Shown here: in pieces, positions 3,201-20,845 of the stretch
Layout: every line of letters starts with the position of its first letter
Position numbering within the stretch: position 1 is the stretch's first letter
Source of the DNA: an uncultured Candidatus Micrarchaeota archaeon
GTDB lineage: Archaea; Micrarchaeota; Micrarchaeia; Micrarchaeales; Micrarchaeaceae
Length of the DNA: 64,000 nucleotides
Direction: 5' to 3'
NCBI GenBank assembly: GCA_963741095.1
Contig: CAVUGN010000011.1
Coordinates: 35,541 to 99,540, forward strand
Translations under genes and position numbers: made by a program
Notes under the pieces: model-generated
What the model saw: only the letters and a program-made list of their open reading frames with translations
Told to the model about the DNA's origin: nothing
Databases searched by the model: none

Positions 3201-3204
3201 TATA

Positions 3205-3465: not shown

Positions 3466-3480
3466 GTCAATCCACCATAA

Positions 3481-3890: not shown

Positions 3891-3936
3891 CCACTTCTCT
3901 TGCTTTCTTTACCTCATTCTGACAAACATGAAGACA

Positions 3937-4134: not shown

Positions 4135-4152
4135 TCTACCATCCTATCAATC

Positions 4153-4263
4153 ATAAGGGTAGGGGGTTGCACCGCGGAAGCATGGTGATAATGTGGAGGA
4201 CGAGCTTGCGCTAATCCATAGAAAATTCTTACTTCCACCCCTGTACAACCTACACACCCGTAT
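4153..4263 (-). ncRNA. Predicted rod-like leader RNA hairpin, copy A
   Basis: Nested pairings GGGTG/TACCC, GGTTGTAC/GTGCAACC, GTGGAAGTA/TGCTTCCGC, apical AGC-GCAA-GCT; AT-rich TATA-like box ~20-25 nt upstream. Confidence 0.65.
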
Positions 4264-4431
4264 AGTATCGCGTCATATCCGGTATTTATTAGATACAGAA
4301 GACAGGGCGGTAGTATTGATAAAGCGAAAACATTAAAACATATAAATTTATCATTAAGCGCTCAATCTTCAATTGTTATACATTAAGGATTTAACAAAAG
4401 GAATAAATATCCTCTTATTTGATATAACTAC

Positions 4432-5928
4432 ATGCAAGACGTTCCACCACAGATATCTGCTGCTTTCGAGAAAGTGAAGAAGACGTACCCGTTCTATGTC
4501 TCGCTGAAGAGGATATACGGAAAATATTACGTATACAAAGTGAAGGTCGTCTGGGACCGACTAACCAAAAAGACAAAAACAAATTCTGAGTACTTGGGCC
4601 GGATAACCAGCGATGGGAAATATAAAAAGAAGAGCATCACACCGAATGATTACCTGAGAAAGGCCGAGGCACTCATCGCTTCCAAAGGTGGGAAGATAAC
4701 GTGGGACGGAATTGAGAAAGTCCGGGGTGCAAACGAGCAGATTAAAGAGGAACAGATCGAGGAAACTGTTGCCGACGAATTGGAAACGAAGATACTGACT
4801 ATATTGAGTATGAACGGCCGCGCGTCGATACCTTTCATAAGCAAGATGGTTGGTCTTAGCAATGCTACAACAGATTATCACGTAAAGAAGATCGAAGAGA
4901 AATACGGCATCAGATATTTTCCAGAGATAGACGTAGACAAATTAGGTTATGCCAGCTTTATGATATCCATAAAATTTGAAGATGAGGTTCCGAGTGCAGA
5001 AGAGATTAAAAGAGAGCTTAGCAAATTTCCTGGAGTACAACTTGCAATGGTAACTCATGGTAGATATGACCTAATAATTCATTTTGTAACCGGGACCGAA
5101 TATATGCCAAATAGTTATGGATGGGCATCTCAGAATGAAATATATGACCTCCAAAATAATGCTTTTAGAGCAAACAAGGCAAAATGGTACGTGTCAACGT
5201 TTTACAGAACATATGGATGCGTACCGTTGAGAAACGAATTTTTTGATATGATGAAGAAAATAGTGTGGGAAAAAAGCAAAGAGAGCAGGAGACCTAAGCC
5301 AAATCAACTTCTTCCTAGGGAGTATTTCGTACTAAAAGAACTAAACTTAGATGGTAGGTGCGAATTCACAGAAATAGACAATAGATGCAATTTTGATAGG
5401 GGTAGATCAGATTACACCTATAAAAGATTAGTTGAAAATAAAACAATAAAACGCATCACGTTGACAATGCAGAAACCTCCGGTAAAGTATGTGGCAATAA
5501 TCTATATGGATTTTATAAAAAGAGATGAGTTTTCAAAGAGCAGAGTGAATCTTTTATTAGACATAATAGAGCGGCGAACACAAATAAACAAATACGCACT
5601 TGTTGGCGATGCGAGCATTCCATATGGTGGATTCTTCATACTGCCGATAACTCAAGATGGGCTACTAGAAAAAGTCACCGAGCAATTAAAGAGCATAAGC
5701 GGCACAAACGTATACGCTCTTGTTGCAAGCGAGATAGTCTTAGGTAGCCTTTGTTATAGATTATTTGATAACGCATACTCAAGCCAGCAACGCATGTTGG
5801 CTGATGAGTACAAGAAGCATCCAGTTGAAAAAGCGAATTATTTGGGCGTAGCAAAAACCAAAAAGAGTAGTATAAAATTAGATATAAGGGGATTGCCTAC
5901 TGACAAATCAACAGATGACGTTACATAA
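4432..5928 (+). CDS. Tandem-Lrp/AsnC regulator, copy 2
   Basis: N-terminal YYVY..WD..K..YLGRI domain; AsnC HTH (KILTILSMNGRASIPFISKMVGLS), RAM, second HTH-RAM. Confidence 0.85.
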   Translation: MQDVPPQISAAFEKVKKTYPFYVSLKRIYGKYYVYKVKVVWDRLTKKTKTNSEYLGRITSDGKYKKKSITPNDYLRKAEALIASKGGKITWDGIEKVRGANEQIKEEQIEETVADELETKILTILSMNGRASIPFISKMVGLSNATTDYHVKKIEEKYGIRYFPEIDVDKLGYASFMISIKFEDEVPSAEEIKRELSKFPGVQLAMVTHGRYDLIIHFVTGTEYMPNSYGWASQNEIYDLQNNAFRANKAKWYVSTFYRTYGCVPLRNEFFDMMKKIVWEKSKESRRPKPNQLLPREYFVLKELNLDGRCEFTEIDNRCNFDRGRSDYTYKRLVENKTIKRITLTMQKPPVKYVAIIYMDFIKRDEFSKSRVNLLLDIIERRTQINKYALVGDASIPYGGFFILPITQDGLLEKVTEQLKSISGTNVYALVASEIVLGSLCYRLFDNAYSSQQRMLADEYKKHPVEKANYLGVAKTKKSSIKLDIRGLPTDKSTDDVT

Positions 5929-5948
5929 GCAGAATGCACTTTAGCTTT

Positions 5949-5981
5949 TTATCCGTTACCTCCTGTTCCTCCTCCTTCCAT
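5949..5981 (-). CDS. Gly-rich micropeptide 2, MEGGGTGGNG
   Basis: ATG...TAA in frame behind conserved promoter and CAGGTGA. Confidence 0.65.
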   Translation of the reverse strand: MEGGGTGGNG

Positions 5982-6178
5982 ATTTTCACCTGTCCAAATA
6001 TCTCTGAAAAGGCTTAAATAGCTTGTGTCCGTTTGAAATGGGCCAGCGCGAATGCTCGTATAAACAACATCGAACCACGTCGGGCGATGTTGTATAATTG
6101 TCTTCATCACGGTGCATAGATAAGTATTTATACTTATTCTACATAATATACTTAATGTGATGAAGATGACAAACATGA
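5979..6178. repeat. Copy of 727-926, including micropeptide promoter block 2 (5982-6028) and the first codons of the antitoxin
   Basis: Near-identical; ends in 12-bp TGACAAACATGA. Confidence 0.9.
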
Positions 6179-6183
6179 AGACA

Positions 6184-6381
6184 TCATCTGGATGCGGAAA
6201 CAGCCCGCATTCCTAACTCGCCAAGCAGCATCACCGGCCTGCCGGTCCTTTCCAACTCGCAGGCGTTTATGTGCCACAGATATGCAACTGGATTCTCATG
6301 CTCCATTCCGCACATCCAGCACCGGTACGCATCGCCGCGCTCTCCCAAGAAAATATCTCTTATCCTTGTCCCTATGCCCAT
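6184..6381 (-). CDS. Small C2HC zinc-finger protein, copy 2
   Basis: YRCWMCGMEHENPVAYLWHINAC. Confidence 0.75.
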   Translation of the reverse strand: MGIGTRIRDIFLGERGDAYRCWMCGMEHENPVAYLWHINACELERTGRPVMLLGELGMRAVSASR

Positions 6382-6398
6382 TCTACCACTCTATCAAT

Positions 6399-6509
6399 CA
6401 TGAGGGTAGAGGATTGTACTGTGGAAGTGTGGTGAGACTCTGGACAGAGCCTGCGCTGAATCTAGAAAAATGCTTACTTCCACCCACATACATATCCTTC
6501 CCACCCATG
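6399..6509 (-). ncRNA. Predicted leader RNA hairpin, copy B
   Basis: GGGTGG/CTACCC, AGGAT/ATCCT, TGTAT/GTACA, GTGGAAGT/ACTTCCAC, AGC-GCAG-GCT; TTTATAAA upstream. Confidence 0.65.
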
Positions 6510-6702
6510 GTAGATGCTATGAAGAAGCTTTTATAAATAGGCTCTCAGAATTTTTAATTATATATATCAATACAGGTATGAAATTCCAATAAATCTCATA
6601 CTATTTAACCATATTAACCATATATAATAGATGGCAGATTAGTATAATGGTTAAATAGATAAATTAGAAAGTTATATATATTACCCATTATAAGGCATAT
6701 GT

Positions 6703-8082
6703 ATGGCAAAACTTCCTGAAAAGGTAGCAGAGACGCTAAATGCACTCAGAAAGGGGAGTAAGCATTCTTTAAGTGTCAAAATAATCCATGGCGGTTATTA
6801 CTTGTACGAAGAGGCCACAAAATGGAACAAGCAATTAAAGAAGCAGGATTTCTACTCCGTATATCTGGGTAAGATAGATGATGCAGGAATCTTAACACCG
6901 CCCCATCACAAGAAAGAGGTTACAAAAACAGAAACCCTTGAAGCGTATATCGCCAAACGGCAACATGATGAGGCGACAGGGAAAAATCTGCGCTTAAGCA
7001 GGATACAGGATTCGATAATCAAGATACTGAGTACTGATGCAAGGATTCCTGTGGAAGAGATAAGCACAATGATTGGGATCCCATATTCCACTGTTGCCTA
7101 TCAGATAAAAAAACTTGAGAAGGATCTTGACATAAAGTATACTCTAGACACTTATGCCGCTTACAATTTCGGATTTTATAGGTTCATAGTAACAGTAAAA
7201 TTCAGGGATAAAAAACCAACAACAGAAGAGATAAAGAAAAGTTTGGGCGATGACCCTCATATACAGTTAGTAATGCTTGGCAGGGGCGAATTTGACATTT
7301 TCATGTATCTTCTTTTTGATAATACTGTTAATGTAGAGGGTTGGATCTTTGACCTGAGGAAAAAGGAGGGTCTATCCAAGTACACGGCAGACTGGAATGT
7401 ATCCTATCTTTTGATAGGCCATGGTATAATACCCCTACGGGATAAGTTTTTTGAGTTGTTTGAAGATAGGATATGGCACAGGACAAAAGAGATGCCGAGG
7501 AAAGGCGCAGACCAGATATACTACCGAGAGTATGCAGTGCTTAAGGAGTTGACCAAGGATGGTCTGAAAAGATTCAAGGAAATAGACAAGGATTACAAGC
7601 TCAATTCTGGGAGTGCGCAATACACTTACCATGAACTGGTGGCCAAAGGCGCCATTCGCAGGGTAACCATATCCATGCAGAAAGCTCCGATAAAATACAA
7701 TGTGATAATACAGATGAAACAAGTGAACATGAAAAGATATATGAAAAGCAGAGAGAAGTATTTCTCATACCTTCTAGAAGACCGTGGGGTTCCAACCAAC
7801 AAAATATCCCTGCTTGGAGATATTGGAACGCCATACGGACAGGTAATTATAATGCCGGTATACGAAGACGGAGACCTTGATAGGATAGACGAGGACCTAA
7901 AGTCCATAGTCAAGGGAGTGGAGCTAAAGATTACCGTGGTTACCAATATTTTAATAGGATCCATATGCTACAACAAGATAGAAGAAAAGAGTACATTTAT
8001 GTACAACAAACTAACCAGCAAGCAAACCAACCAGATACAGAATAAGAGTCCATACGAAGAAGACGATGACAGCTCGTACTAA
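6703..8082 (+). CDS. Tandem-Lrp/AsnC regulator, copy 3
   Basis: Same architecture; IPLRDKFFE, WHRTKE and REYAVLKEL motifs. Confidence 0.85.
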   Translation: MAKLPEKVAETLNALRKGSKHSLSVKIIHGGYYLYEEATKWNKQLKKQDFYSVYLGKIDDAGILTPPHHKKEVTKTETLEAYIAKRQHDEATGKNLRLSRIQDSIIKILSTDARIPVEEISTMIGIPYSTVAYQIKKLEKDLDIKYTLDTYAAYNFGFYRFIVTVKFRDKKPTTEEIKKSLGDDPHIQLVMLGRGEFDIFMYLLFDNTVNVEGWIFDLRKKEGLSKYTADWNVSYLLIGHGIIPLRDKFFELFEDRIWHRTKEMPRKGADQIYYREYAVLKELTKDGLKRFKEIDKDYKLNSGSAQYTYHELVAKGAIRRVTISMQKAPIKYNVIIQMKQVNMKRYMKSREKYFSYLLEDRGVPTNKISLLGDIGTPYGQVIIMPVYEDGDLDRIDEDLKSIVKGVELKITVVTNILIGSICYNKIEEKSTFMYNKLTSKQTNQIQNKSPYEEDDDSSY

Positions 8083-8098
8083 GAATGTATTATACGCT

Positions 8099-8122
8099 TT
8101 ATGCTCCTCCTCCATCTCCCAT
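8099..8122 (-). CDS. Gly-rich micropeptide 3, MGDGGGA
   Basis: ATG GGA GAT GGA GGA GGA GCA TAA. Confidence 0.65.
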   Translation of the reverse strand: MGDGGGA

Positions 8123-8169
8123 AGTTTCACCTGTCCAAACATCTCTGAAAAGGCTTAAATAGCTTGTGT
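8123..8169 (-). promoter_or_regulatory. Micropeptide promoter/SD block 3
   Basis: Near-identical to 730-776. Confidence 0.7.
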
Positions 8170-8320
8170 ATCTGCAGAGAGGGCATTTCCGGATGTCGCA
8201 TGAAAGCACTAAATATCTGGACAGGCGCAATAAATACGGGCCGGATGGGCGGAACTGTTATCTATCTGCAAGTTCCACCCCCCATCCGACTTTGCGGTTT
8301 TTGGCGAGGCGGATGCGGGC

Positions 8321-8650
8321 GAGCGCGCCATGCCGAGGCGCTGAGCGCCGAGAACGGCGCCGAGCGTAACAGTGCGGGGTTGCTGCGGTTAAGCTTGAGT
8401 TACCTTTGTCCAGCTAAGGCAACGCTTAGCTGCTCAAGCTCATGATGCTGCTCAAGCTGGTGGTGTTGCTAATGCTGGTTATGCTGCTGTTGGTGTTGTT
8501 GCCGCTGTTGCTGCTGTTGCCGTTGCAGGTGTTTGTGCCGGATGCTGCCTGGCTTGCACTCGCCATCACGTTCGCTCCGCACTCGCTCGCGTGGGCTCGC
8601 GGGCAGCAGGCTCTCCGCTCGCTTCGCTCGCTCCGAGCCTGGGGCTTGCC
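8321..8650. repeat. GC-rich palindromes and (CTG/TTG)n low-complexity tract
   Basis: GGCGC-TGA-GCGCC hairpin (related copy 22665-22683), gctgctcaagct twice, repeated ctcgc units. Confidence 0.5.
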
Positions 8651-8823
8651 AGGCATATACACAATCAAAGATATGGAAAGCAGGCCGTAAACCGCTGACC
8701 TTGGGATGCTTTAGGTATAGCACCCTGCCGACTAGGGCAATCCTGGCTATACTCAACAAGACTATACATCGGTCAGATATAGTTTTGGGTATAGTTCCAT
8801 GGCAGTACGCACTCCCTTACTAT

Positions 8824-9114
8824 TCATCCTTCAACCATCGATACGAAGGCCCTGCCGATGCCTCGCGGTGCCCGGTCCTTTGCGTCCTTCAGCTCGCTCC
8901 TGTCCCTGTAGAACCTGACCTCTGCCACGCAGTCGCCGTTGCTGTCGTAGAGAGGGATGCGCTGCCTGCGCCATATGTCCATCAGCCTCTCCGCGAGGTC
9001 GCCTTTCCCGCCCTTCAGCTGCAGGAATACGGTCCTGCACAACCCTTTCTTGCCTTTTCCGCTCGCTTGCGCTAACCTATTCGTTGTCAATTTTCCACCC
9101 TTTTTTGCACCCAC
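8824..9114 (-). CDS. Conserved cassette small protein (RAM-like family)
   Basis: LCRTVFLQLKGGKGDLAERLMDIWRRQ; near-identical to 14550 and 20200. Confidence 0.7.
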   Translation of the reverse strand: MGAKKGGKLTTNRLAQASGKGKKGLCRTVFLQLKGGKGDLAERLMDIWRRQRIPLYDSNGDCVAEVRFYRDRSELKDAKDRAPRGIGRAFVSMVEG

Positions 9115-9128
9115 TTAACGTGACTTGA

Positions 9129-9317
9129 TTAACTCCTTGAATTCGCATCTATCATGACGCGCATGCTCCCGGCTGACAGTTCCATCATATCGGATATATA
9201 GCTGCCGACCTCGCTCTCCCTGCAGTACGCCTTGCCTTCCACGCTGTCCGTGTGCACCTGCACGAGAACGCTCCTGTCGTTTCCCAAGATATGCTTTATA
9301 CTTGCACTCACGCCCAT
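9129..9317 (-). CDS. Conserved 62-aa cassette protein
   Basis: VHTDSVEGKAYCRESEVG; homologue at 20509-20685; first gene after hairpin. Confidence 0.7.
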   Translation of the reverse strand: MGVSASIKHILGNDRSVLVQVHTDSVEGKAYCRESEVGSYISDMMELSAGSMRVMIDANSRS

Positions 9318-9339
9318 TCTACAACCTTATTGATCGTTA

Positions 9340-9442
9340 GGGCAGACGATTGTACTGCGGAAGCATGGTGTGATTATGGAGGGAGAGCCTGCGCTGACCC
9401 ATAGAAAATCGTTACTTCCACCCCTGTACATCCTTTCCACCC
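9340..9442 (-). ncRNA. Predicted leader RNA hairpin, copy C
   Basis: GGGTGGA/TCTGCCC, GTAC/GTAC, GTGGAAGTA/TGCTTCCGC, AGC-GCAG-GCT. Confidence 0.65.
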
Positions 9443-9614
9443 GCATAGTATTATGAATCGAGTTGTATATATATTTATACTGATATTTATTGTAGATGAG
9501 CAGATGATACTACGAATATGGCATTAATAATTTATCAATTAGTATGCTTCGACCAGTGGTATCGAGCTAGGTAGGATAATAAGATATTAATATTTATCTA
9601 TTATAATTATAAAT

Positions 9615-11027
9615 ATGCAAAGGATGCCTGACAGAGTAAGCGAGACATACGAAAGGCTAAAGAAAGAGATGGCATTTCCCGTGCGGCTACAGGTGAGCGG
9701 AGGGCGCTATTACATTTACAAGCAACTGACTGTATGGGACAAGGAAACGAAGAAAGGCAAATCTGTAGCCAAGTACCTGGGCAAGATACTTGATGACGGC
9801 ACTTTCGTGAGGAAGGCGAATCGCAATGCGGCCAAGGATCTTGATGTGGCCAAAGCGGTGATAATCTCGTGCGGCGGTACGGTAAAGCTGCCAGAAAAAA
9901 TCAAAGTGGGAGCAAAGCCGCCCATCATGGAAGAGGTGGATAGGAAAATTCTGATGAATCTTAGCATGAACTGTAGGATGCCGTTATCTGTAATTGCGAA
10001 AAGAGCAGGCATATCGACTACTTCTGCTGTCTATAAGAAAAGGAATCTAGAGAAAAAGTGCGGTATACGGTATCTTACGTCAATAACTGTGCGCTGGCTT
10101 GGATTTTCATATTACGTCGCATTCGTGAAATTCGAGAACGAAAAACCGAACGCGAAAGAGTTGAAAGAAACGATTGAAAGAGAACAAAGGATCCAGTTAG
10201 CATTGATTACCACGGGTAAATACGACTTGATGCTCTACATGGTTGCAGAAGACGACGACAAGCTGAATGAAGTTGTCACTACGTTGCATGGCAGCGAGAC
10301 GTTGAAAAAGTATACGAGTAGTTGGATGGTAACAACATATGTAGACAAATACGGCTACGTGCCATTGAGAGATGAATTTTTCGAACTGCTCAAGAGCAGA
10401 GTATGGCAAAGGACAAAAGAAACGCCTCGACCTTCGCGCGGCCAGCTCCTGAAGAGCGAATACGCAGTATTAAGGGAGCTGAACAGCAGCGGGGAAGCAA
10501 GCTTCTCGAAAATAGATAAAAAATACGATCTAAACAAAGGCAATGCGAGGTATACATACGAAAAGCTAAAGGAAAGGAGAAAGTACACGTATGAGGAGAT
10601 TGCTGACAAGAAAGTTCTTTTGAGGAATACACTTACTATGGACAATCTAGCAGTCAGATACAACACTATACTCATAATGGAGATACTCAACAGCAAGGAA
10701 TTCCTTGAGCGAAGGGAGGGTCTATTCAGGTATATAACTGAGGATACGGGTGGTATAGCTAACAGATTTTCCGCAATAGGTGATATAGTCACACCATATG
10801 GTATGATGTTTATTACGCCAATTTTCAAAGAGAATGAATTGGAAGATATAATTGAGGGGTTGAACGACAGGGTAAAAGGGGTTAAGTTGGACACGCTTTT
10901 GGTTACGGGAGTATTAGTGGGTAGCCTCTTCTACAGAAGATTTGACAATGCGCATGCCCAACAGTACGCACAATTGATAAGTGAATACAAAATCAGGCCA
11001 CAAGAAGAATTGATGGAATATGAGTAA
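9615..11027 (+). CDS. Tandem-Lrp/AsnC regulator, copy 4
   Basis: DRKILMNLSMNCRMPLSVIAKRAGIS HTH; YGYVPLRDEFF; GSLFYRRFDNA. Confidence 0.85.
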   Translation: MQRMPDRVSETYERLKKEMAFPVRLQVSGGRYYIYKQLTVWDKETKKGKSVAKYLGKILDDGTFVRKANRNAAKDLDVAKAVIISCGGTVKLPEKIKVGAKPPIMEEVDRKILMNLSMNCRMPLSVIAKRAGISTTSAVYKKRNLEKKCGIRYLTSITVRWLGFSYYVAFVKFENEKPNAKELKETIEREQRIQLALITTGKYDLMLYMVAEDDDKLNEVVTTLHGSETLKKYTSSWMVTTYVDKYGYVPLRDEFFELLKSRVWQRTKETPRPSRGQLLKSEYAVLRELNSSGEASFSKIDKKYDLNKGNARYTYEKLKERRKYTYEEIADKKVLLRNTLTMDNLAVRYNTILIMEILNSKEFLERREGLFRYITEDTGGIANRFSAIGDIVTPYGMMFITPIFKENELEDIIEGLNDRVKGVKLDTLLVTGVLVGSLFYRRFDNAHAQQYAQLISEYKIRPQEELMEYE

Positions 11028-11104
11028 TCTGTGCGCTTACTTCGTTATGAAGGTCAAAATAAGCTAGATAAATCAGTTATTTTACAGCAAGCAACAGCTA
11101 AAAT

Positions 11105-11134
11105 TCAGCCTCCTCCCGGTCCTCCACCATCCAT
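11105..11134 (-). CDS. Gly-rich micropeptide 4, MDGGGPGGG
   Basis: ATG GAT GGT GGA GGA CCG GGA GGA GGC TGA. Confidence 0.65.
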   Translation of the reverse strand: MDGGGPGGG

Positions 11135-11180
11135 GATCTCACTGTCAAAACATCTCTGAAAAAGCTTAAATAGCTTGTGT
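11135..11180 (-). promoter_or_regulatory. Micropeptide promoter/SD block 4
   Basis: ACACAAGCTATTTAAGCTTTTTCAGAGATGTTTTGACAGTGA. Confidence 0.7.
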
Positions 11181-11210
11181 TTCAGTCGGCAACGGGGAAG
11201 CGCCGATAAC

Positions 11211-11430
11211 GATGCATGGTTAACATCAGTCAGTAATGTATATCAAACAACATCGAACCACGACGACAAACATCGTTTCTCAATTGCACTTTTACGTCGA
11301 AGAACCGGCTCCCCACCAAAAATTTATCGACGACAAAATTCGCCTTTTCGACGGATGTTTGAGATGTGAACTATACTCAAAAACTATACCCCGGCCAGAT
11401 ACACTCTCAGATATAATATTAGGTATAGCA
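11211..11430. repeat. TCGA-rich repeat, long copy
   Basis: Aligns with 3014-3200 and 22688-22783. Confidence 0.85.
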
Positions 11431-11462
11431 CTGTGGTGTTCAGACATGACGTTGAGCCTTAC

Positions 11463-13406: not shown

Positions 13407-13418
13407 AATTGATCATCT

Positions 13419-14540
13419 CTAAATATGTGACGGCTGAATTCCCGGATATATTGAAAGTGGATTGCTCACGAATTCCATCCTCGCAAAGCGTTCAAGTATC
13501 TCTTTTATCGAAAGATATATCTCATTGTGGGTCTTCCCCCTCAGATCCCACCTGTAAGCAGTATTGTTGCAATCGTCTATATGCAGAACCATGTTTGAAG
13601 AAACCAGCGGGTTGAACATCCCCTTTTCGCACATCTTTCCGAAAATAGGGCATTCGCTAATGCAGTACTTTGGGTTGAAGAATGCTCCTCTAGAAGAGTT
13701 CAATAGCATGACCTTTACGCCACCCACATTCAGCGTGAGCTGGACAGACCCGAATCCCTCTTCGTTGGATACATCAACCTTTTCAATTTCGTAATCGTGC
13801 CTTATCATATTGAGAACTTCTTCGGAATTTATATAATTCCCTCTCCAGTATTCGATAGGCGAGAGACTCGAATATTTGCCAATACCTCCGTGTGCCCCGT
13901 TTGTGGCTATGTACTCATCCTGTATAAAGAGGTTGAACAGTTTCAACGAGAAACCAGACTTGGCCGCAAACTCGATCATACTGTTTACCTCGCCCATGGT
14001 CTGTTTTATTAGTACCATATTTATCCTAGTCTTTATGTCGCGTTCCGAGAGTTCCGATAGTAGCCTGCGGGTTTTGTCGTTAAGCACCTTGCAAATCCCC
14101 TCTTTTGGCTGGTTTGATGTAGAATCCAAGGAAAATTGTACGGATATCCGGTCCTTATGCCTCTCCAAAACATCCATATGTCGCTCGAGATTCTTTCCGT
14201 TAGTTATGACTACAAAATTAATTTCCGGATGAAGGTCCAATATCTTTTCAACCTCATTGAAAAGCCACTCTACGAGAGTCGGTTCGCCCCCACTGATCTT
14301 GAATTTGTCGAAGCCCAGATCGTAGGCCGCTGTAACAGTGGAGAAGAACTCTTCACCCGACATATTCGCCCCGATGCTCTTGTTCTGCCCAAAGGGGTAG
14401 CAATAGCCGCACTTGTTATTGCATTCCTTTATTACTGCAATGGAGAAATATAACCCTCCCGCGATTTTTCTTAATTCGTTGTTCTGCACTCTCGTGGCAG
14501 ATTCCGCTTTCGATGCTTGTTTCTCCATCTTTTCGCCCAT
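13419..14540 (-). CDS. Radical SAM protein (MoaA-like fold, function unknown)
   Basis: CNNKCGYC, SGGEP, ITNG, FSLDS; C-terminal Cys cluster. Confidence 0.85.
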   Translation of the reverse strand: MGEKMEKQASKAESATRVQNNELRKIAGGLYFSIAVIKECNNKCGYCYPFGQNKSIGANMSGEEFFSTVTAAYDLGFDKFKISGGEPTLVEWLFNEVEKILDLHPEINFVVITNGKNLERHMDVLERHKDRISVQFSLDSTSNQPKEGICKVLNDKTRRLLSELSERDIKTRINMVLIKQTMGEVNSMIEFAAKSGFSLKLFNLFIQDEYIATNGAHGGIGKYSSLSPIEYWRGNYINSEEVLNMIRHDYEIEKVDVSNEEGFGSVQLTLNVGGVKVMLLNSSRGAFFNPKYCISECPIFGKMCEKGMFNPLVSSNMVLHIDDCNNTAYRWDLRGKTHNEIYLSIKEILERFARMEFVSNPLSIYPGIQPSHI

Positions 14541-14549
14541 CAGATAAGC

Positions 14550-14828
14550 TCAACTTTCGCCCATCGATACGAATGCCCTGCCAATGCCCCGCGATGCCTG
14601 CTCTTTTATGTCCTTCAACTTATTTCTATCCCTGTAGAATCTGACCTCAGCCACGCAGTCGCCATTGCTGTCGTAAAGAGGGATGTGCTGCCTGCGCCAT
14701 ATGTCAATCAACCTCTCCGCAAGGTCGCCATTTCCGCCTTTTAATTGCAGGAACACGGTCCTGCACAATCCTTTTCTGCCGCTTCCGCCGGATCGCGCCA
14801 GCTTGTTAGTTGCCAATTTTCCACCCAT
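14550..14828 (-). CDS. Conserved cassette small protein (RAM-like family)
   Basis: Homologue of 8824-9114. Confidence 0.7.
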   Translation of the reverse strand: MGGKLATNKLARSGGSGRKGLCRTVFLQLKGGNGDLAERLIDIWRRQHIPLYDSNGDCVAEVRFYRDRNKLKDIKEQASRGIGRAFVSMGES

Positions 14829-14884
14829 TTGTTTACACCCACTTTTCCTGCTTTCTTTACCTCATTCTGTCAAACATGAAGATA

Positions 14885-15082
14885 TCATTTGGGTGCGGAA
14901 ACAGCCCGCATCCCTAAATCGTCAAGCAGCATAACTGGTCTGCCGGTCCTTTCCAATTCACATGCGTTTATGTGCCACAGATACGCGACTGGATTCTCAT
15001 GTTCCATGCCGCACATCCAGCACTGGTACACATCGCCGCTCCCTCCAAAGAAAATATCCCTTATCCTTGTTCCCATTCCCAT
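14885..15082 (-). CDS. Small C2HC zinc-finger protein, copy 3
   Basis: YQCWMCGMEHENPVAYLWHINAC; start set by homology. Confidence 0.75.
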   Translation of the reverse strand: MGMGTRIRDIFFGGSGDVYQCWMCGMEHENPVAYLWHINACELERTGRPVMLLDDLGMRAVSAPK

Positions 15083-15096
15083 TCTACCACTTATCA

Positions 15097-15213
15097 ATCA
15101 TAAGGGTAGGGGGTTGCACCGCGGAAGCATGGTGATAATGTGGAGGACGAGCTTGCGCTGATCCGTAGAAAATTCTTACTTCCACCCCTGTACAACCTAC
15201 ACACCCATATGAT
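15097..15213 (-). ncRNA. Predicted leader RNA hairpin, copy D
   Basis: Near-identical to copy A, with closing stem ATCATA/TATGAT; TTATATA upstream. Confidence 0.65.
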
Positions 15214-15378
15214 ATTATGAAGTCCAAAGTATATATAAGTAAACGAGCTCCTGCATTACACGATACTGCACTTCATAGAATTCTACACCGATTTACTCGC
15301 ATTTATCAATCAATATAACCCTTTATATTAACCTTATAATAGTAAAGCTTAAATATCATATAACCTTATAATATCATT

Positions 15379-16704
15379 ATGGATATGCCTGAAGCGGTGC
15401 GAAAGACTTTTGCAAGGCTAAAATTAGAGTATCCTTTTTACATTCTGCTTTCGATAATAAACAACAGGTTTTATGTTTATCATTCATCTTCTATTTGGGA
15501 CAAAGAAAAAAGAAAAGTGCGCAGTAACAAAGAATACCTAGGCCGCATAACCGAAGATGGTAAGTTCATAAAAAAGAGCGTTAAGGAAGGCATTGCACCG
15601 CAGATTAATACCCTAACCTCCATAAACAGCCTAGACAAGGTCGACGAAAAAATACTGACGCACCTAAGCATGAATTGCAGACTGCCGATATCAACGATAG
15701 CAGAACGGGTGGGATTAAGCGTACAGGCTACGGAGCGCAGAAAAGAGAATTTAGAGCGGAGATACGGAATTAGATACTTCACAAGCATAAACTACTTCAA
15801 GCTCGGTTACTCCACATACCTCGCATTTGTCTCTTTTAAGGACAAAAAGCCGGACATGGCTGTGCTGAAATCAGTATTAGAGAAATCACCACGAATACAG
15901 TTGGCCATGGCGGCGCAGGGTGCATACGACCTAGTTCTCTACATCCTGGCCGAGAATAGTGCAATTCTAAACGAAGTCATATTCGATATTCGGAAAGATG
16001 AACGAATTGGAGATTACGAATCTATCTGGAATGTTGTAGTATTCGATCAAGCATATGGGTGCGTGCCACTGCGAGACCTGTTCTTCGACCTTCTCGAGAA
16101 GAAGGTGTGGCATAGAACCAAAACAATACCTAAGCCGGCAAGCGATAGCCTGACATATAGAGAGTATGTACTACTTAGAGAATTGAATTCCGAAGGCAAC
16201 AAGCCTTTTGCTGAGATAGAAAAGATGCATGACATGGGTCACGGCGCTGCAAAGTACACGTTTGACAAGATCAAGGCTAAGGAATTAATATGGAGGCCAA
16301 CAATGACAATGGGCAATTATGGCGTAAAATACAATGCAATGATCTTCATCAGCATACTAAACAAGGCTGCATTTATCCGTGACCGGGAAAAGTTTCTTCG
16401 TTATATAATCAAGGACTACGATGCACCGTCGAACAGGTTCTCTCTCGAAGGCGATACTCTATCCCCAGATGGAGAAGTATTCCTAATGCCTGTTCTGCGG
16501 GACGGAGAACTGGAAATGGAATCTGGATGGCTAAGCGAACAGATAAACGGAATCAAACTAGAATCGCTGATCATCACAAAAATACTTCTAGGTGAGCTGT
16601 GTTATAGAAAATTAGATAACGCACATGCCCAGCAAACAAACATACTCGTAAGTGAATATAAAATGGAACCCCCTAAGGAAACCATAGATTATATCCTAGA
16701 ATAG
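15379..16704 (+). CDS. Tandem-Lrp/AsnC regulator, copy 5
   Basis: Same architecture and motifs. Confidence 0.85.
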   Translation: MDMPEAVRKTFARLKLEYPFYILLSIINNRFYVYHSSSIWDKEKRKVRSNKEYLGRITEDGKFIKKSVKEGIAPQINTLTSINSLDKVDEKILTHLSMNCRLPISTIAERVGLSVQATERRKENLERRYGIRYFTSINYFKLGYSTYLAFVSFKDKKPDMAVLKSVLEKSPRIQLAMAAQGAYDLVLYILAENSAILNEVIFDIRKDERIGDYESIWNVVVFDQAYGCVPLRDLFFDLLEKKVWHRTKTIPKPASDSLTYREYVLLRELNSEGNKPFAEIEKMHDMGHGAAKYTFDKIKAKELIWRPTMTMGNYGVKYNAMIFISILNKAAFIRDREKFLRYIIKDYDAPSNRFSLEGDTLSPDGEVFLMPVLRDGELEMESGWLSEQINGIKLESLIITKILLGELCYRKLDNAHAQQTNILVSEYKMEPPKETIDYILE

Positions 16705-16725
16705 ACTCAAGAATATAAAAACTGC

Positions 16726-16767
16726 TTAACCTCCGCCCCCTCCGCCTCCGCTTCCTCCTCCGTCCAT
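16726..16767 (-). CDS. Gly-rich micropeptide 5, MDGGGSGGGGGGG
   Basis: 13 codons plus TAA; Gly codons GGA, GGC, GGG and GGT are all used. Confidence 0.65.
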   Translation of the reverse strand: MDGGGSGGGGGGG

Positions 16768-16813
16768 AATATCACTGTTTAAACATCTCTAGAAAAGCTT
16801 AAATGGATTGTGT
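16768..16813 (-). promoter_or_regulatory. Micropeptide promoter/SD block 5 (most diverged)
   Basis: ACACAATCCATTTAAGCTTTTCTAGAGATGTTTAAACAGTGA. Confidence 0.65.
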
Positions 16814-16846
16814 CTGTTTGAACTTGGCTAGCGCACATGTTTGTGC

Positions 16847-16976
16847 AAACATCGTCGAACCACGTCGACCAACGTTGTTTCTCAATCACACTTTTACGAT
16901 GATTGACCGGCTCCCCAGAGAAAAATTTATCGACGACAAAATCCGCCTTTTCGACGAATGTTTGAGATTTGAACTC
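16847..16976. repeat. TCGA-rich repeat, long copy
   Basis: Aligns with 3014-3140. Confidence 0.85.
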
Positions 16977-17019
16977 AGAGTAGTAATCCTACACATCTTT
17001 GGGCGTGAACCCAAGGCAA

Positions 17020-17895
17020 TTACTTGTTTGTATTTACGAATTCCCAAAAGCTTCCTCCATTTGCCGATGTGTACCTTTTCATTGCCGGCAGCAGCATTTC
17101 TGCGTAGCTCTTCAGGTACGGCCTTGCTGCAACCATCCTTTCGCATGTTCTATCTACAGATATGGGTTCGCTCAATCCTAACTGTCCGGTCAATATACCC
17201 TCTGGGGCAAGATAGCTTACCAGGGCTTCTTCATACAGGTTGTGATCATGAGTGCCGATCAGCCCGGACTTGCGGGGCAGAAGTAAGTGCAGGAGCTCAT
17301 GCAGCGCAACGCACAGCAACTCCCTGCCCAGCCTCTCTGGATCTTTATGCGCAACATGGGACAGATAGCATCCAATCACTGCCGGATCTGCATTCAAGGC
17401 ATGCCCTCCAACCACCATATCGTTATCAAAGCCTTTTTTCTCCGCCAATATCAGCGTGATCTGTTCTGGCAGTTTCGCCTCCAACATCCTGCTAAAATTA
17501 TCGCGGATTTCACTTTCTTTCGAGTGGAAAATATCTGATGCAATCTTGCCTATCCCAGCCAAGACGCCACTGCTTTCTGCAGTGTCATTGCAGTATACGT
17601 TCGGCTGCAGCTTTGGCATGTCAATAGCATCTAACAGTATCCGAGTTGTCTTGTCAATAGACGGAAACCTTTTGAATGCTACCTGTTCATTTTTGCTATT
17701 GTATAACAGATTTGCAGCTTCTATTACATTCCGATAAGCATCGTAGAAGTCCAGGATTGATGAATAGCCCTTTACCACAGTCTGCAGATTGCCAGGAGTG
17801 AAGAATATGTCATATACTCCAAGTATCTTTTGAGCATTGGAGTTTGTGGTGATCGTTAATTTCACATATTCACCTTTGCTGCGCGACATTGACAC
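17020..17895 (-). CDS. HExxH protein, putative zinc metallopeptidase
   Basis: VALHELLH then EEALVSY about 20 aa later (gluzincin-like); last gene of the radical SAM operon. Confidence 0.55.
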   Translation of the reverse strand: MSMSRSKGEYVKLTITTNSNAQKILGVYDIFFTPGNLQTVVKGYSSILDFYDAYRNVIEAANLLYNSKNEQVAFKRFPSIDKTTRILLDAIDMPKLQPNVYCNDTAESSGVLAGIGKIASDIFHSKESEIRDNFSRMLEAKLPEQITLILAEKKGFDNDMVVGGHALNADPAVIGCYLSHVAHKDPERLGRELLCVALHELLHLLLPRKSGLIGTHDHNLYEEALVSYLAPEGILTGQLGLSEPISVDRTCERMVAARPYLKSYAEMLLPAMKRYTSANGGSFWEFVNTNK

Positions 17896-18839
17896 TGTTC
17901 TACTTCAATATCAAGTGACTTGAATCTTTCTATTGACCTTTTCCAAATAGTACTCCATGGCTCATTGTAGGCATTTCCTAAAACTACTTCCCTTAAATTA
18001 AGACACGGAGTGACATCTCCATTGACAAGCACGCCTGCTTGGATAACTCCGGCTGTGCAGGTCTTGAAATGGTATGAGTCAAGCAATGTCTCTTCCACTC
18101 TATCCGTGCATCTCTCTATCACTTCTACCACTTTAACGTTTTCTCTATCTAGTTGAGATCTCATATCCTCAACTCTGAGCATCAGATCATACATTTCATG
18201 CCTATCAACCACCAAGTCTTGGTATTTGTTGGGATCCACTGCAGGTTGCAGAGGCTCCAAGTTCAGCAGCTTCATCTGACTATATTTCTTCATCAAGACC
18301 TCCGTACTATTGAGCACATCATCCTGGTTTGCCTTAGTTATGACTATCCCGACTGTAAAGGGTATTTCATTTCTCTCAAGTATGTCAAGACCATCCAGAG
18401 TCTCAGCAGTCTTTCCTCGCGTCCTATCGTTTATTTCCGATCTTACACTATCTAAAGAGACTTGGATTGCGGCATCATTTCCTACGGCATTCTTTAATCT
18501 CATTAACTCTTCTTTTGTAAGCCTATTTATCAGCGTGCCATTGGTACTCACTTCCACTACAGTCTTGAACGTGTTCTTTGCGAGTTCAAACACATCAACT
18601 ATATCTCTTCTACTAAAGGGTTCTCCACCGATCAACAGTATCTCGAAGGGATTTGCCTCTTCCTTTGTTTTCTCAAAGAGATTTTTGAGTCTTTCGAGGG
18701 GTGGAGTGATATGAGTGAATGGCTGAGCATAACAGTAGGTGCAATTAAGATTGCACCCACTTACCACTTCAAACTCCACCCTGAAAGGCAAACTTGGCAA
18801 TATCTTCTGAGCCATCATGCACTCGCCTTGCTTCTGCAT
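17862..18839 (-). CDS. Radical SAM/SPASM-twitch maturase 2
   Basis: CNLNCTYC, GGEP, CTAG...NGDVTPC...LGNAYNEPWSTIW. Confidence 0.9.
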   Translation of the reverse strand: MQKQGECMMAQKILPSLPFRVEFEVVSGCNLNCTYCYAQPFTHITPPLERLKNLFEKTKEEANPFEILLIGGEPFSRRDIVDVFELAKNTFKTVVEVSTNGTLINRLTKEELMRLKNAVGNDAAIQVSLDSVRSEINDRTRGKTAETLDGLDILERNEIPFTVGIVITKANQDDVLNSTEVLMKKYSQMKLLNLEPLQPAVDPNKYQDLVVDRHEMYDLMLRVEDMRSQLDRENVKVVEVIERCTDRVEETLLDSYHFKTCTAGVIQAGVLVNGDVTPCLNLREVVLGNAYNEPWSTIWKRSIERFKSLDIEVEQCQCRAAKVNM

Positions 18840-19774
18840 TGCATTCCCTTTGGAAGAGTTTCGTATCTTTCAAGAGATCTTACCCATATATCATGCCACG
18901 ACTCCTTAAACACGTTTCCGATGTTTGCGTCTCTCATCAGTGCGCATGGGGATACATTTCCATTTGGGAACACTGTTGCTCTGAACACTCCAGCCAAACA
19001 CGTATCCATTTTGTATGTGTCGAGTACAGCAGGATCATTGCAGGCGCACTTGTCACCAGTTCCTGTGATTCGAACTGAACTACCCATGCGTGCTGCAGTA
19101 CCGCGAACTTGTACAATCAGAGCTGCCATCTCTTTTGCTCCGATGTCCAAGCTCTCATGATATCTCTCTTTATTTGAGAGGTTTGGCATCATTCGGTTCA
19201 AGTTAATCCCATGCAGGTGCTTGAACTCTGACATGAAGGCGACTTCGGTATCCATTATATCGTTGATATTCTCCTTGCTTACTACCGTTCCGATTGAGAA
19301 TGGAATTTGATGGTCATCCATCTTTTGCATCCCTCTGAAAACGGTGTCAGTCTTTCCTCTCAGCATATTGTTCAAAGAAGGCTTTGCGCTGTCTGCAGAT
19401 ATTTGGATAAAGGCATCATCTCCTGCTATTTTCTTTAGTCGTGCAAAGTCAGCTTCAGTCATTATGTCGAAGGCCGTTCCATTTGTGACTACTCCTACTC
19501 TCCTCCCAAAAAGGTTCCTCGACTCTTCAATCACGTCTAGTACGTCTTTGCGTGTGAATGGCTCGCCTCCGCAAAGGATTACCTCGAAGGGGTCTACTTC
19601 TTGCTTCGTCTTCTGAAGCATATATATCACGTCAACCAGAGGAGGCTCGTAATGTGAAAGGGGCTGGGCATAGCAATTTGGACATGCTAGATTGCACATT
19701 CCAGTCACCTCAATCTCTACTCTGAATGGAACTTGTGGCAGAATCATGTTTTTATTCTCCATATCAAACCCCAT
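18815..19774 (-). CDS. Radical SAM/SPASM-twitch maturase 1
   Basis: CNLACPNC, GGEP, CLAG...NGNVSPC...IGNVFKESWHDIW. Confidence 0.9.
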   Translation of the reverse strand: MGFDMENKNMILPQVPFRVEIEVTGMCNLACPNCYAQPLSHYEPPLVDVIYMLQKTKQEVDPFEVILCGGEPFTRKDVLDVIEESRNLFGRRVGVVTNGTAFDIMTEADFARLKKIAGDDAFIQISADSAKPSLNNMLRGKTDTVFRGMQKMDDHQIPFSIGTVVSKENINDIMDTEVAFMSEFKHLHGINLNRMMPNLSNKERYHESLDIGAKEMAALIVQVRGTAARMGSSVRITGTGDKCACNDPAVLDTYKMDTCLAGVFRATVFPNGNVSPCALMRDANIGNVFKESWHDIWVRSLERYETLPKGMQCRSKASA

Positions 19775-19785
19775 TTGGGTGGCAG

Positions 19786-20190
19786 TTAGACTGCCACCGT
19801 TTCCAGAAGATTCGGGTATTCTGCCCTAACATCTTCTACGTTCCTATCCAGTATGCTTTTCAGCAGACCGATAGTCTTTGCTGGAGCTGTGAAGATAGTG
19901 CTATCTTTCAGATTCATGATGAATCCGAAGAGTCCATCTTCTCTTACCTTGATACACTCAGACACCTTCATATCTGTTCCCCTTAGGAGTCCGGGTGTCA
20001 AAGGATTTATGCTGGAATTCATCCAATTGGAATGGCTCATCCAATTGCCATGACCATAGCCTCCAGCGTATGGCTTTTCTGCCCATTCTTGCTTTGCTCC
20101 AACTCTTGAGTACAGCTGTATGCCATACTCATTCTGCACTCTCGTGGCAGACTCCGCTTTTGATGCTTGTTTATCCATCTTTTCACCCAA
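19786..20190 (-). CDS. Putative RiPP precursor fused to a PqqD/RRE-like domain
   Basis: GHGNWMSHSNWMN repeat followed by KVSECIKVREDGLFGFIMNLKDSTIF (RRE-like beta strands); directly upstream of two SPASM enzymes. Confidence 0.5.
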   Translation of the reverse strand: MGEKMDKQASKAESATRVQNEYGIQLYSRVGAKQEWAEKPYAGGYGHGNWMSHSNWMNSSINPLTPGLLRGTDMKVSECIKVREDGLFGFIMNLKDSTIFTAPAKTIGLLKSILDRNVEDVRAEYPNLLETVAV

Positions 20191-20199
20191 TAGATAAGC

Positions 20200-20466
20200 T
20201 CAACTCTCGACCATCGATACGAATGCCCTGCTGATGCCGCGCGACGCGCGGTCCTTCTCGTTCTTCAGTTCGCTGTCGTCCCTGTAGAACCTGACCTCTG
20301 CCACGCAGTCGCCGTTGCTGTCGTAGAGAGGGATGCGCTGCCTGCGCCATATGTCCATCAGCCTCTCCGCGAGGTCGCCTTTCCCGCCCTTCAGCTGCAG
20401 GAATACGGTCCTGCACAACCCTTTCTTGCCTTTTCCGCTCGCTTGCGCTAGCTTGTTAGTTGTCAA
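20200..20466 (-). CDS. Conserved cassette small protein (RAM-like family)
   Basis: Near-identical to 8824-9114. Confidence 0.7.
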   Translation of the reverse strand: MTTNKLAQASGKGKKGLCRTVFLQLKGGKGDLAERLMDIWRRQRIPLYDSNGDCVAEVRFYRDDSELKNEKDRASRGISRAFVSMVES

Positions 20467-20508
20467 TTTCCCACCCAGTTTACTTTACACCCGCTTAACG
20501 TAATCTGA

Positions 20509-20685
20509 TTAACTCCTTGGATTCGCGTCTATCATGACGCTCATGCTCCCGGCTGACAGCTCCATCATATCGGATATGTAACCACCCACTTCGCTCTCCT
20601 TGCAATACGCCTTACCCTCCACACTGTTTGTGTGTACCCTCACGAGAACGTTCTTATCTAGCAATTTTCCTATTATGTTGTTCAT
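20509..20685 (-). CDS. Conserved 58-aa cassette protein
   Basis: Homologue of 9129-9317; GGTGA SD-like motif before ATG. Confidence 0.7.
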   Translation of the reverse strand: MNNIIGKLLDKNVLVRVHTNSVEGKAYCKESEVGGYISDMMELSAGSMSVMIDANPRS

Positions 20686-20710
20686 CTCACCACACCAATC
20701 ATAAATATAA

Positions 20711-20845
20711 TGGTGGGAGATTAGAGAGAAAGGCAGATATCGGACGTGGTAGAACTGAGGCCCGTTTGGGAAGAATTGTTGAAACAACGTGCATGCAAGA
20801 AGCCTGCACCCTCGTATTCAGAACCGACACTGTTATCACCCACCA
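20711..20845 (-). ncRNA. Predicted leader hairpin, divergent copy E
   Basis: Different sequence, same position; TGGTGGG/CCCACCA, TGTCGG/CCGATA, GAGG/CCTC; TATATATA upstream. Confidence 0.45.

Follow-up and report, generated by a model that had tools for sequence, protein, structure and literature searches.

Several 5′-terminal stem-loops of bacterial mRNAs act as stabilisers, including those of the ompA 5′ UTR in E. coli and of the aprE and ermC leaders in B. subtilis. In a second group of leaders, structure in the 5′ UTR serves autoregulation by protein binding, as with archaeal L7Ae, which binds a K-turn in its own 5′ UTR, and with the ribosomal-protein leaders. To our knowledge, few cis-acting structured RNAs are known from archaea.

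The present analysis concerns rod-like hairpins in a 64,000-nucleotide stretch of a Micrarchaeota genome (hereafter the window), which we read, with a probability of about 0.6, as a hitherto undescribed family of structured cis-acting mRNA 5′ leaders in Micrarchaeota (DPANN), which would work as handles on their transcripts. The rod resembles the ompA, aprE and ermC stem-loops in that the hairpin lies within 0–2 nt of the (here predicted) 5′ end, the Shine-Dalgarno sequence (SD) stands outside and downstream of it, and shape takes precedence over sequence; it differs from them in being archaeal, in its length (104–171 nt), several helices and conserved internal loops, and in belonging to a paralogous family tied to one gene module, and protection from decay is here only proposed. 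With the L7Ae and ribosomal-protein leaders it shares the placement of a structured 5′ UTR directly before the gene of a small nucleic-acid-binding protein (here C2H2-like), but inspection by eye found no tandem GA and no K-turn signature (the 3′ strand is 14% G), micro-proteins other than the zinc-finger type are led as well, and protein binding is putative. Riboswitches and the orphan candidate structured RNA motifs of comparative genomics, as presented in the accessible parts of PMC2864571 and PMC7266159, are likewise covarying cis elements of 5′ UTRs; the rod, which is absent from Rfam, differs from these in having no SD or terminator expression platform, a hypervariable apex and many paralogues per genome. 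Full-text searches of the literature found neither this RNA nor any cis-acting structured RNA described for DPANN archaea, and the accessible part of PMC8975820 contains no mention of Lrp, zinc finger or radical SAM and a single irrelevant "Utr".

Rod leaders of the window and their neighbouring genes

Four mutually homologous rod copies of about 104 nt each (A–D, type I) lie on the minus strand of the window, and a fifth element (E, type II) occupies the corresponding position in a further unit. The features are as follows, with the E-values of the covariance models R1 and R2 where these apply.

4157..4260, minus strand: type I rod, copy A (match with flanks 4145-4271; R1 E 5.7e-37, R2 E 3e-35)
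6404..6507, minus strand: type I rod, copy B (match with flanks 6392-6518; R1 E 9.9e-28)
9340..9443, minus strand: type I rod, copy C (match with flanks 9328-9454; R1 E 2.7e-34)
15104..15207, minus strand: type I rod, copy D (match with flanks 15092-15218; R1 E 2.9e-38; z −3.39)
20712..20844, minus strand: type II rod leader, element E, closed by GGUGGG/CCCACC (z about −2.6 to −2.81)
4283..4291, minus strand: TATA-like box of unit A, read from sequence
6530-6537, 9466-9473, 15230-15237 and 20869-20876, minus strand: TATA-like boxes of units B, C, D and E, read from sequence
4135..4156, minus strand: single-stranded linker (UUAUGAUUGAUA box) and GGUGG-type SD of unit A, from alignments
3937..4134, minus strand: predicted 65-aa micro-protein with a single C2HC (C2H2-like) zinc finger, first gene after rod A; its profile matches classical C2H2 fingers in PDB
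6184-6381 and 14885-15082, minus strand: paralogues of the 65-aa zinc-finger micro-protein
9129..9317, minus strand: 62-aa type-2 micro-protein, first gene after rod C, with the N-terminus of the zinc-finger type and without the zinc finger
20509-20685, minus strand: paralogue of the type-2 micro-protein, after rod E
4432..5928, plus strand: divergent regulator with an Lrp/AsnC HTH (Pfam HTH_AsnC-type/HTH_24; NCBIfam LysM/LrpA-like below family cut-offs)
6703-8082, 9615-11027, 15379-16704 and 21031-22485, plus strand: paralogues of the regulator

A preliminary description of this DNA had reported four long minus-strand hairpins with an AGC-GCAR-GCT cap, and these were recovered by three routes: copies A–D form one repeat family (D3, 62–80% identity), R1 finds all four on the minus strand (E 3e-38 to 1e-27), and in single-sequence folding each closes into one long hairpin (MFE −36.6 to −43.2 kcal/mol; z −1.5 to −3.4) whose cap reads AGC-GCAA/GCAG-GCU. 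Each rod is closed by GGGUG at its start pairing with CACCC about 100 nt downstream, and these two are its most sequence-conserved parts; across genera, internal-loop bases are also conserved (A..AUUUUYC on the 5′ side, UC.CCA on the 3′ side), and in the apical half both length and sequence are hypervariable, the inserts there measuring 20–60 nt. The same description held that differences between the copies preserve pairing. All the changes that it quoted are present, and that from GGUU/AACC to GGAU/AUCC is truly two-sided, but the change in copy B is not compensatory, since two U-G pairs (columns 37/99 and 43/93) become U-A through alteration of the 3′ strand alone. Copy B, the most diverged type I rod in the window, folds on the plus strand as well as on the minus strand or better, because Watson-Crick pairs stand where the other copies have G-U. 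Within the 1.08-Mb genome there are eight type I copies, 77–97% identical to copy A by BLAST.

The fifth element had been described as different in sequence but alike in position and complementarity, and it does fold, yet neither R1 nor R2 matches it and BLAST finds it no relative in the genome, so that a diverged type I copy was rejected. Through the box TGTTTTCAACCATTCTTACCACAC it aligns with three further genomic copies, giving a type II of four copies, and on this sequence evidence we class it as an analogue from a second leader class and not as a homologue of A–D. Type II rods are longer (124–171 nt, against about 104 nt for type I), and the interiors of the two types differ; the start, the closure and the position are common to both.

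The distance from the end of the TATA-like box to the first G of GGGUG is 23 nt in units A–D and 24 nt in E, in agreement with the 20–25 nt first reported; among 34 leaders of the family, an A/T-rich 8-mer stands 23–25 nt upstream of the rod in 26 and 15–32 nt upstream in all 34. This spacing suggests that the rod RNA is transcribed from a start site about 23 nt after the TATA box, at or 1 nt before GGGUG. The sequencing runs that match positions 3100-9700 of the window number 20, from 12 studies, and all are of DNA. On the 3′ side, a conserved single-stranded box (YUAUGAUYA) is followed by a GGUG-type SD, which is the SD of this organism (16S 3′ end GAUCACCUUAA), and then by the start codon of the micro-protein; the order of linker box and SD seen in unit A is repeated after rods B, C and D. 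The SD lies outside the stem, as had been noted, with 12–25 nt between the end of the rod and the SD. A uORF in the linker was rejected, as several copies have ACG, AAG or TCG in place of the ATG of UUAUGAUU and the reading frames do not agree, and inspection by eye found no consistent covariation between the linker and either the 5′ flank or the P4 strand with which it might pair.

The rod has a fixed position between the gene of a double Lrp/AsnC regulator and that of a micro-protein: it adjoins all twelve Lrp/AsnC-type regulator paralogues in the genome, and a regulator gene adjoins 16 of 22 leaders from other genomes. The zinc-finger micro-protein has the spacing Y-x-C-x2-C-x12-H-x3-(H/C), with Y19, C21, C24, L35 and H37 invariant in 24 sequences, and its profile matches PRDM9, Zif268 and other C2H2 fingers (E 2e-19 for whole sequences, with single fingers reaching only i-E 0.2–0.5); a search of the single zinc-finger protein against Pfam gave no match at E ≤ 1. 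Spacing and profile similarity thus place the product predicted from the first ORF after rod A among the C2H2-type zinc fingers. In genome G191, homologues of the type-2 micro-protein stand after the leader. Further along, some units encode radical SAM/SPASM enzymes and an S9 peptidase, and the operons led by rods vary in content within the genome. Small proteins of about 90 aa show weak similarity to the RAM domain.

Relatives, covariation and strand bias

The RNA family was defined by the covariance models R1 and R2 and comprises 34 leader sequences. The R1 search placed 17 at the leader position among the 24 matches listed, and the R2 search gave 25 matches in 8 of the 151 genomes of the order, source genome included; all 25 (8 in the source genome and 17 foreign) stand directly upstream of a small micro-protein ORF. 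One match outside the order, in genome G259 (E 0.009), has neither a TATA box nor a micro-protein gene and was treated as chance.

When all 25 diverged leaders were aligned by sequence only (MAFFT), RNAalifold returned no consensus fold and 0 pairs; global sequence-only alignment fails at this level of divergence, and the figures for covariation of single pairs therefore depend on alignments that were fitted to the model structure and lean towards it. In such model-fitted alignments, 92.0% of the cells of 19 leaders are paired, against 71.3% after shuffling (0 of 500 shuffles as high) and 39–54% when slid, with two-sided change in 22 of 27 pairs. For all 34 leaders, again model-fitted, the corresponding values are 86.7%, 63.8% (0 of 500 as high) and 42–51%, with two-sided change in 25 of the 27 pairs and a score of 0.514 against 0.185 shuffled and at most 0.107 slid. 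Within ten subfamilies, the hairpins were recovered from sequence-only MAFFT alignments, with 28 two-sided pairs in total and 71 of 1298 cells unpaired. An arm-swap test, which uses no alignment, gave −32.6 kcal/mol for the native and −24.8 kcal/mol for the swapped arms of 14 representatives, and none of 20,000 permutations did as well. Two-sided changes across genera are seen in the model-fitted alignments, and co-variation of the arms in the alignment-free swap. The statistical support comes from other genomes and not from the source genome, where only 1 of the 27 pairs shows two-sided change. Together with the fixed place beside regulator and micro-protein, these changes support the earlier proposal that the RNA is a structured leader and part of the system; the processed sRNA and the binding by the regulator that were also suggested are conjecture.

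The pairing is biased towards the sense strand. G-U cells number 70 and A-C cells 16, 1×1 A-C mismatches number 4 in the sense fold and 22 in the antisense fold, and the sense strand is the more stable in 23 of 33 leaders. In fixed windows the mean z is −1.55 for sense and −0.69 for antisense, with sense the more stable in only 25 of 45, and fold energies are only moderately better than those of shuffled sequences.

Several known kinds of element were ruled out. The covariance search of Rfam release 15 gave 0 matches at the gathering score in the 64-kb window and 0 at E ≤ 1 in 3900-21100, in line with the initial impression that the RNA belongs to no known family. The rod is not an intrinsic terminator or attenuator: it is followed by CCCUUAUGAUUG, with no T-run, and no leader coincides with any of the 21 terminator-like sites located in 3000-21200. 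Nor is it coding, as an N-terminal extension or leader peptide would be, for in the window copies an in-frame stop precedes the ATG, and elsewhere there is no codon periodicity (in leaders with an open frame, variable columns by codon position number 15/16/18, 11/10/13 and 8/10/8). An RNA thermometer or SD-sequestering leader was excluded by the position of the SD outside the rod and by a probability of its being unpaired that hardly depends on the rod (mean over 29 leaders 0.51 with the rod, 0.53 without it and 0.27 without the 5′ arm alone), and a MITE or other mobile inverted repeat by context, since the 8 home and 17 foreign copies all have a TATA box on one side and a micro-protein gene on the other.

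Possible modes of action

The rod probably has a regulatory role. On the reading that we prefer, the first ~104 nt (type I) or 124–171 nt (type II) of the transcript would close into an imperfect rod and act, in cis and at the level of the RNA, as a 5′-terminal handle that sets how long the operon mRNA lives and how it is translated. It may block decay that depends on the 5′ end, it may be the docking site of a module protein (the zinc-finger micro-protein or the double-Lrp regulator), and the conserved linker may control access to the nearby SD. Against the stabiliser mechanism stands the length of the rod, which greatly exceeds what a protective 5′ hairpin would require. A more specific version, in which the micro-protein (C2HC or type-2) or the double Lrp/AsnC regulator binds the rod of its own unit and the 12 units are self-contained feedback switches, is speculative and in our estimate rather unlikely; if true, it would give an Lrp-type module a role at the level of RNA and perhaps make it the chief regulatory network in a reduced DPANN genome.

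The conservation of GGGUG and CACCC, in an organism with a GGUG-type SD, would also suit a translational switch in which the C-rich 3′ arm is an anti-SD and the GGGUG-rich 5′ arm an anti-anti-SD, so that occupation of the 5′ arm masks the SD. Removal of the 5′ arm does make the SD less accessible, its unpaired probability dropping by more than 0.1 in 18 of 29 leaders and rising by more than 0.1 in one. Shuffled 3′ arms, however, mask the SD equally (0.22, against 0.20 for the native arms, in 21 leaders), so that masking reflects C-richness rather than an evolved register, and the local CACC/GGUG hairpin would span only about 4 bp; we consider such a switch unlikely. That the rod controls the operon as a small-molecule riboswitch is suggested by its 5′ UTR position, its covariation, the internal-loop bases kept across genera and the enzyme genes of some units. 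Given an apex that varies in length and sequence, a structure that includes neither SD nor terminator, twelve paralogous copies leading operons of unlike content in a 1-Mb genome, and a second class with another interior in the same place, it is probably not one, and we hold this reading to be very improbable.

Action at the level of DNA, with the inverted repeat or a cruciform as operator of the octamer-forming Lrp-type regulator and the RNA hairpin as a by-product, would account for the adjoining regulator gene, for the box TTCATAATATCATA 5′ of the rod being partly the reverse complement of the box TATGATTGATA 3′ of it, and for copy B and several others folding equally on both strands. A double-stranded DNA site would not favour the observed bias in G-U cells and A-C mismatches, and a DNA site recognised by a protein shows the reverse of the pattern seen here, in which pairing is kept while the sequence turns over; this leaves an operator quite improbable. 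We give the same low standing to a stable trans-acting small RNA, cut from the 5′ UTR or ended after the rod: the compact closed rod, the several copies per genome and the conserved single-stranded box directly 3′, a candidate processing site, agree with it, but there is no T-run or terminator 3′ of the rod, target complementarity was not found, and the rod always comes with a downstream SD and ORF (25 of 25). Least probable of all is a functionless hairpin inherited with a duplicated promoter-gene cassette; the home copies, close to copy A and with almost no compensatory change, look as they would after recent duplication or gene conversion, but across genera the sequence has largely turned over with the pairing kept, and two classes with unlike interiors keep the same start, closure and position.

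The module in a reduced genome

Under the preferred reading of a cis-acting 5′ leader, the locus is of interest because a genome of 1.08 Mb keeps 12 copies of one module, made up of a large Lrp-type regulator, a rod leader and a micro-protein, and because several genera keep this triad while the rod sequence turns over. An alignable RNA family opens the question of post-transcriptional regulation in minimal genomes, and it comes with candidate partners in the zinc-finger micro-protein, the small proteins with weak RAM-domain similarity and the regulator. The presence of radical SAM/SPASM enzymes and an S9 peptidase in some operons raises the possibility that the module governs a pathway of peptide modification. 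Searches of metagenomes and of species genomes for the zinc-finger protein brought only 9 and 2 loci, respectively, 5 of which duplicate genomes already included.

Units and leaders in the window

Five units of common design occupied positions ~3,000-22,500, each pairing a plus-strand regulator gene (441-498 aa, with an Lrp/AsnC-type HTH and sub-threshold LysM/LrpA-like matches in NCBIfam) with a divergent operon on the minus strand. A TATA-like box stood 23 nt (24 nt in unit E) upstream of a G-rich sequence, and in individual folds the first ~104 nt of each operon formed one long imperfect hairpin, hereafter the rod, followed on its 3' side by a single-stranded stretch UUAUGAUUGAUA, a GGUGG-type SD, and a micro-protein gene beginning with ATG.

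4157-4260, minus strand, type I rod, copy A
6404-6507, minus strand, type I rod, copy B
9340-9443, minus strand, type I rod, copy C
15104-15207, minus strand, type I rod, copy D
20712-20844, minus strand, type II rod, element E

The micro-protein of units A, B, and D (65 aa) had the spacing Y-x-C-x2-C-x12-H-x3-C, and its 24-sequence profile matched classical C2H2 fingers in the PDB; that of units C and E (58-62 aa, type-2) was similar at the N-terminus and had no finger. Further downstream, the operons encoded ~90-aa proteins, one with weak similarity to the RAM (Lrp/AsnC ligand-binding) domain that fell below threshold (E 0.006-0.04), and radical SAM or SPASM enzymes came next in units D and E. 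The minus-strand interval 11463-14540 of unit D held a radical SAM enzyme and an S9 peptidase, and 17020-20190 of unit E held two radical SAM/SPASM enzymes with 134-aa and 291-aa proteins, neither of which returned a family match. The N-terminus MGEKMxKQASKAESATRVQN was common to the unit D radical SAM enzyme and the unit E 134-aa protein, and the gene content of both units resembles that of a peptide-modification cluster.

The homology of the four type I elements, proposed in the preliminary description, was borne out by a repeat family (D3) and by alignments, and the proposed cap, AGC-GCAA/GCAG-GCU, was present in all four. Their folds ranged from -36.6 to -43.2 kcal/mol (z -1.5 to -3.4); on the plus strand the fold was lost in copies A and C (z +0.05 and +1.07) and was better in copy B (z -3.9), because U-A stands there where the other copies have U-G. 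Both differences that had been cited as preserving pairing exist, the first being a one-sided change of G-U to A-U and only the second a truly two-sided swap of U-A to A-U. BLAST and R1, a covariance model made from the copies, found eight copies in the 1.08-Mb genome, with just these four in the window. Within-genome covariation was thin, with a two-sided change in one of 27 pairs, and the window alone would not prove the structure. The eight copies were followed by a finger protein in four cases and a full type-2 protein in two, the other two being those at C5:58559 and on contig C10. At the latter (C10:14764-14890) the ORF downstream ends 18 codons after the conserved ATG, and this unit may have decayed.

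Element E matched neither R1 nor R2 (a second covariance model, made from 19 leaders) and had no BLAST relative. Twelve regulator paralogues were present in the genome, neighboured by a type I rod in eight cases, by element E in one, and by leaders alignable to element E in three:

C1:~74345-74515, plus strand, type II rod leader
C5:~97563-97732, minus strand, type II rod leader
C5:~202547-202670, minus strand, type II rod leader

These four leaders shared the box TGTTTTCAACCATTCTTACCACAC, the upstream box TTCATAATATCATA, and a GGUGG/CCACC closure, and folded with z -2.8 to -5.6 (the three listed here, -3.7 to -5.6). Given these alignable relatives, the common box, the closure, and the fold, element E represents a second rod class in the window; the earlier placement of a fifth element at the same position holds, as a member of a separate class. 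That every divergent operon is so led extends to the whole genome, where a rod leader was found at 12 of 12 units. In two of the three further type II loci, a ~30-aa hydrophobic peptide comes next and then a protein of ~88 aa that resembles the ~86-aa protein of weak RAM-domain similarity encoded in the window.

Distribution and conservation of the fold

The host order comprises small archaeal genomes (0.5-1.2 Mb), and the zinc-finger micro-protein was found in 43 of 248 of them, a tally that counts this genome and one flagged as unpublished, which contributed to no other result. Many of these genes were preceded, in individual folds, by the same architecture in a different sequence; R1 matched 17 such upstream regions at the expected place, and R2 reached further subfamilies. 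Whole-genome searches with R2 covered 151 genomes of the order and gave 25 matches, spread over 8 genomes including this one; all 25 had a small ORF directly 3', which after the 17 foreign matches encoded a zinc-finger or type-2 protein. A phylum-wide sample yielded matches in 5 of 151 genomes, just one of them outside the order, and this match was rejected as marginal and lacking the leader's genomic context; the family is so far restricted to one order of Micrarchaeota. A regulator-like gene adjoined the leader in 16 of 22 foreign loci, divergent in its full-length form and upstream on the same strand in a shorter form, and five of the six loci without it have <500 nt of upstream flank.

When 34 leaders were aligned by fitting to the model, 86.7% of the 802 cells held standard pairs. 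The share fell to 63.8% with partners shuffled between sequences (none of 500 shuffles reached the observed value) and to 42-51% with partners slid by 1-3 columns; two-sided changes occurred in 25 of 27 pairs, and the covariation score was 0.514 versus 0.185 (shuffled) and ≤0.107 (slid). A 19-sequence alignment agreed. Since model-fitted alignments are biased towards the model's own structure, and since RNAalifold, the check suggested in the preliminary description, found no consensus at all when 25 leaders were aligned with MAFFT from sequence alone, two model-free checks were added. MAFFT alignments within ten subfamilies each gave a long hairpin; taken together, they contained 28 two-sided pairs, and 71 of their 1298 cells were unpaired. 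In an alignment-free arm swap among 14 subfamily representatives, native halves averaged -32.6 kcal/mol versus -24.8 for halves mixed between leaders, and not one of 20,000 permutations gave a mean as low as the native one. The two arms of each lineage therefore fit each other more closely than the G-rich/C-rich composition common to all leaders (5' half 33% G, 3' half 41% C) would explain. Sequence conservation lay in GGGUG on the 5' side and in CACCC, with which it pairs, as well as in parts of one internal loop and in the YUAUGAUYA linker; the helices between covaried freely and the apex was hypervariable. The rods form a genuine, conserved leader RNA family of two classes that had not been described before, and an Rfam search of the window matched no family, as the first reading of the sequence had anticipated.

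Strand, transcription, and rival readings

Paired positions held 70 G-U versus 16 A-C cells (47 to 16 among 14 foreign sequences), single-sequence folds had 4 single A-C mismatches in the sense and 22 in the antisense orientation, and the sense strand was more stable in 23 of 33 elements, or in 25 of 45 with fixed windows (mean z -1.55 versus -0.69 antisense); this bias moderately supports a sense RNA. The leader region is very likely transcribed. Of the 34 leaders, 26 have a TATA-like box 23-25 nt upstream of their first paired base, and every one has such a box at a distance of 15-32 nt; the C-rich 3' arm contains no TATA-like sequence that could serve a start 3' of the rod. No terminator-like site within 3000-21200 coincided with a leader. 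A coding role was rejected: window copies have an in-frame stop ahead of the micro-protein ATG, and the three subfamilies in which the leader stays open throughout in the frame of the zinc-finger ORF (loci L028, L058-L060; L024, L051, L057; L071, L073, L074) showed no codon periodicity of substitutions. A MITE-like repeat was likewise rejected because the rod was never seen outside its own context.

The 16S rRNA 3' end of this organism (C1:98605-100598, locus L080) is GAUCACCUUAA, without CCUCC, and the SD is therefore GGUG-type. The SSU match there, at 1,994 nt, exceeds the 1,478 positions of its model and so points to an insertion or intron. An SD switch hidden in the rod would draw on the drop in SD accessibility from 0.51 to 0.27 when the 5' arm was removed in silico, but shuffled 3' arms masked the SD alike (0.22 versus 0.20), and the drop therefore does not specifically support an evolved switch. 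The intact rod leaves the SD free, its shape is kept rather than its sequence, and it always accompanies a gene for a small nucleic-acid-binding-type protein and an Lrp-type regulator gene. Over the rival readings of an SD switch, a riboswitch, a DNA operator, a processed sRNA, and a neutral hairpin, we favour a rod that would start at the very 5' end of the transcript and act in cis as a 5'-terminal handle on the operon mRNA, governing how stable it is and how it is translated, probably by way of one of the module's proteins.

Other elements near the units

Immediately 3' of each regulator gene lay a conserved minus-strand cassette in which about 24 nt separate a TATA-like box (CTATTTAAGCC) from a GGTGA SD, followed by a tiny Gly-rich ORF (MEGGGTGGNG, MGDGGGA, MDGGGPGG.., MDGGASG, MEGPGG); transcripts from this cassette would enter the regulator gene's 3' end in antisense. 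Also conserved is an intergenic block, up to ~280 nt long (repeat families D5, D10, D12, and D17), with small hairpin-plus-T-run sites; it may be a terminator region common to the units or a further non-coding RNA.

705-776, 5949-6028, 8090-8169, 11109-11180, 16742-16813, 22555-22634, minus strand, cassette 3' of regulators
1572-1653, 2436-2481, 3011-3151, 11199-11383, 16846-16986, 22675-22792, conserved intergenic block

Two overlapping minus-strand genes just downstream of unit A (1651-2369) encode a HEPN protein (Pfam E 1.9e-27) and a nucleotidyltransferase of minimal type (NTP_transf_2 E 7e-15; MntA-like match below cut-off), and together appear to form a type VII toxin-antitoxin-like module.
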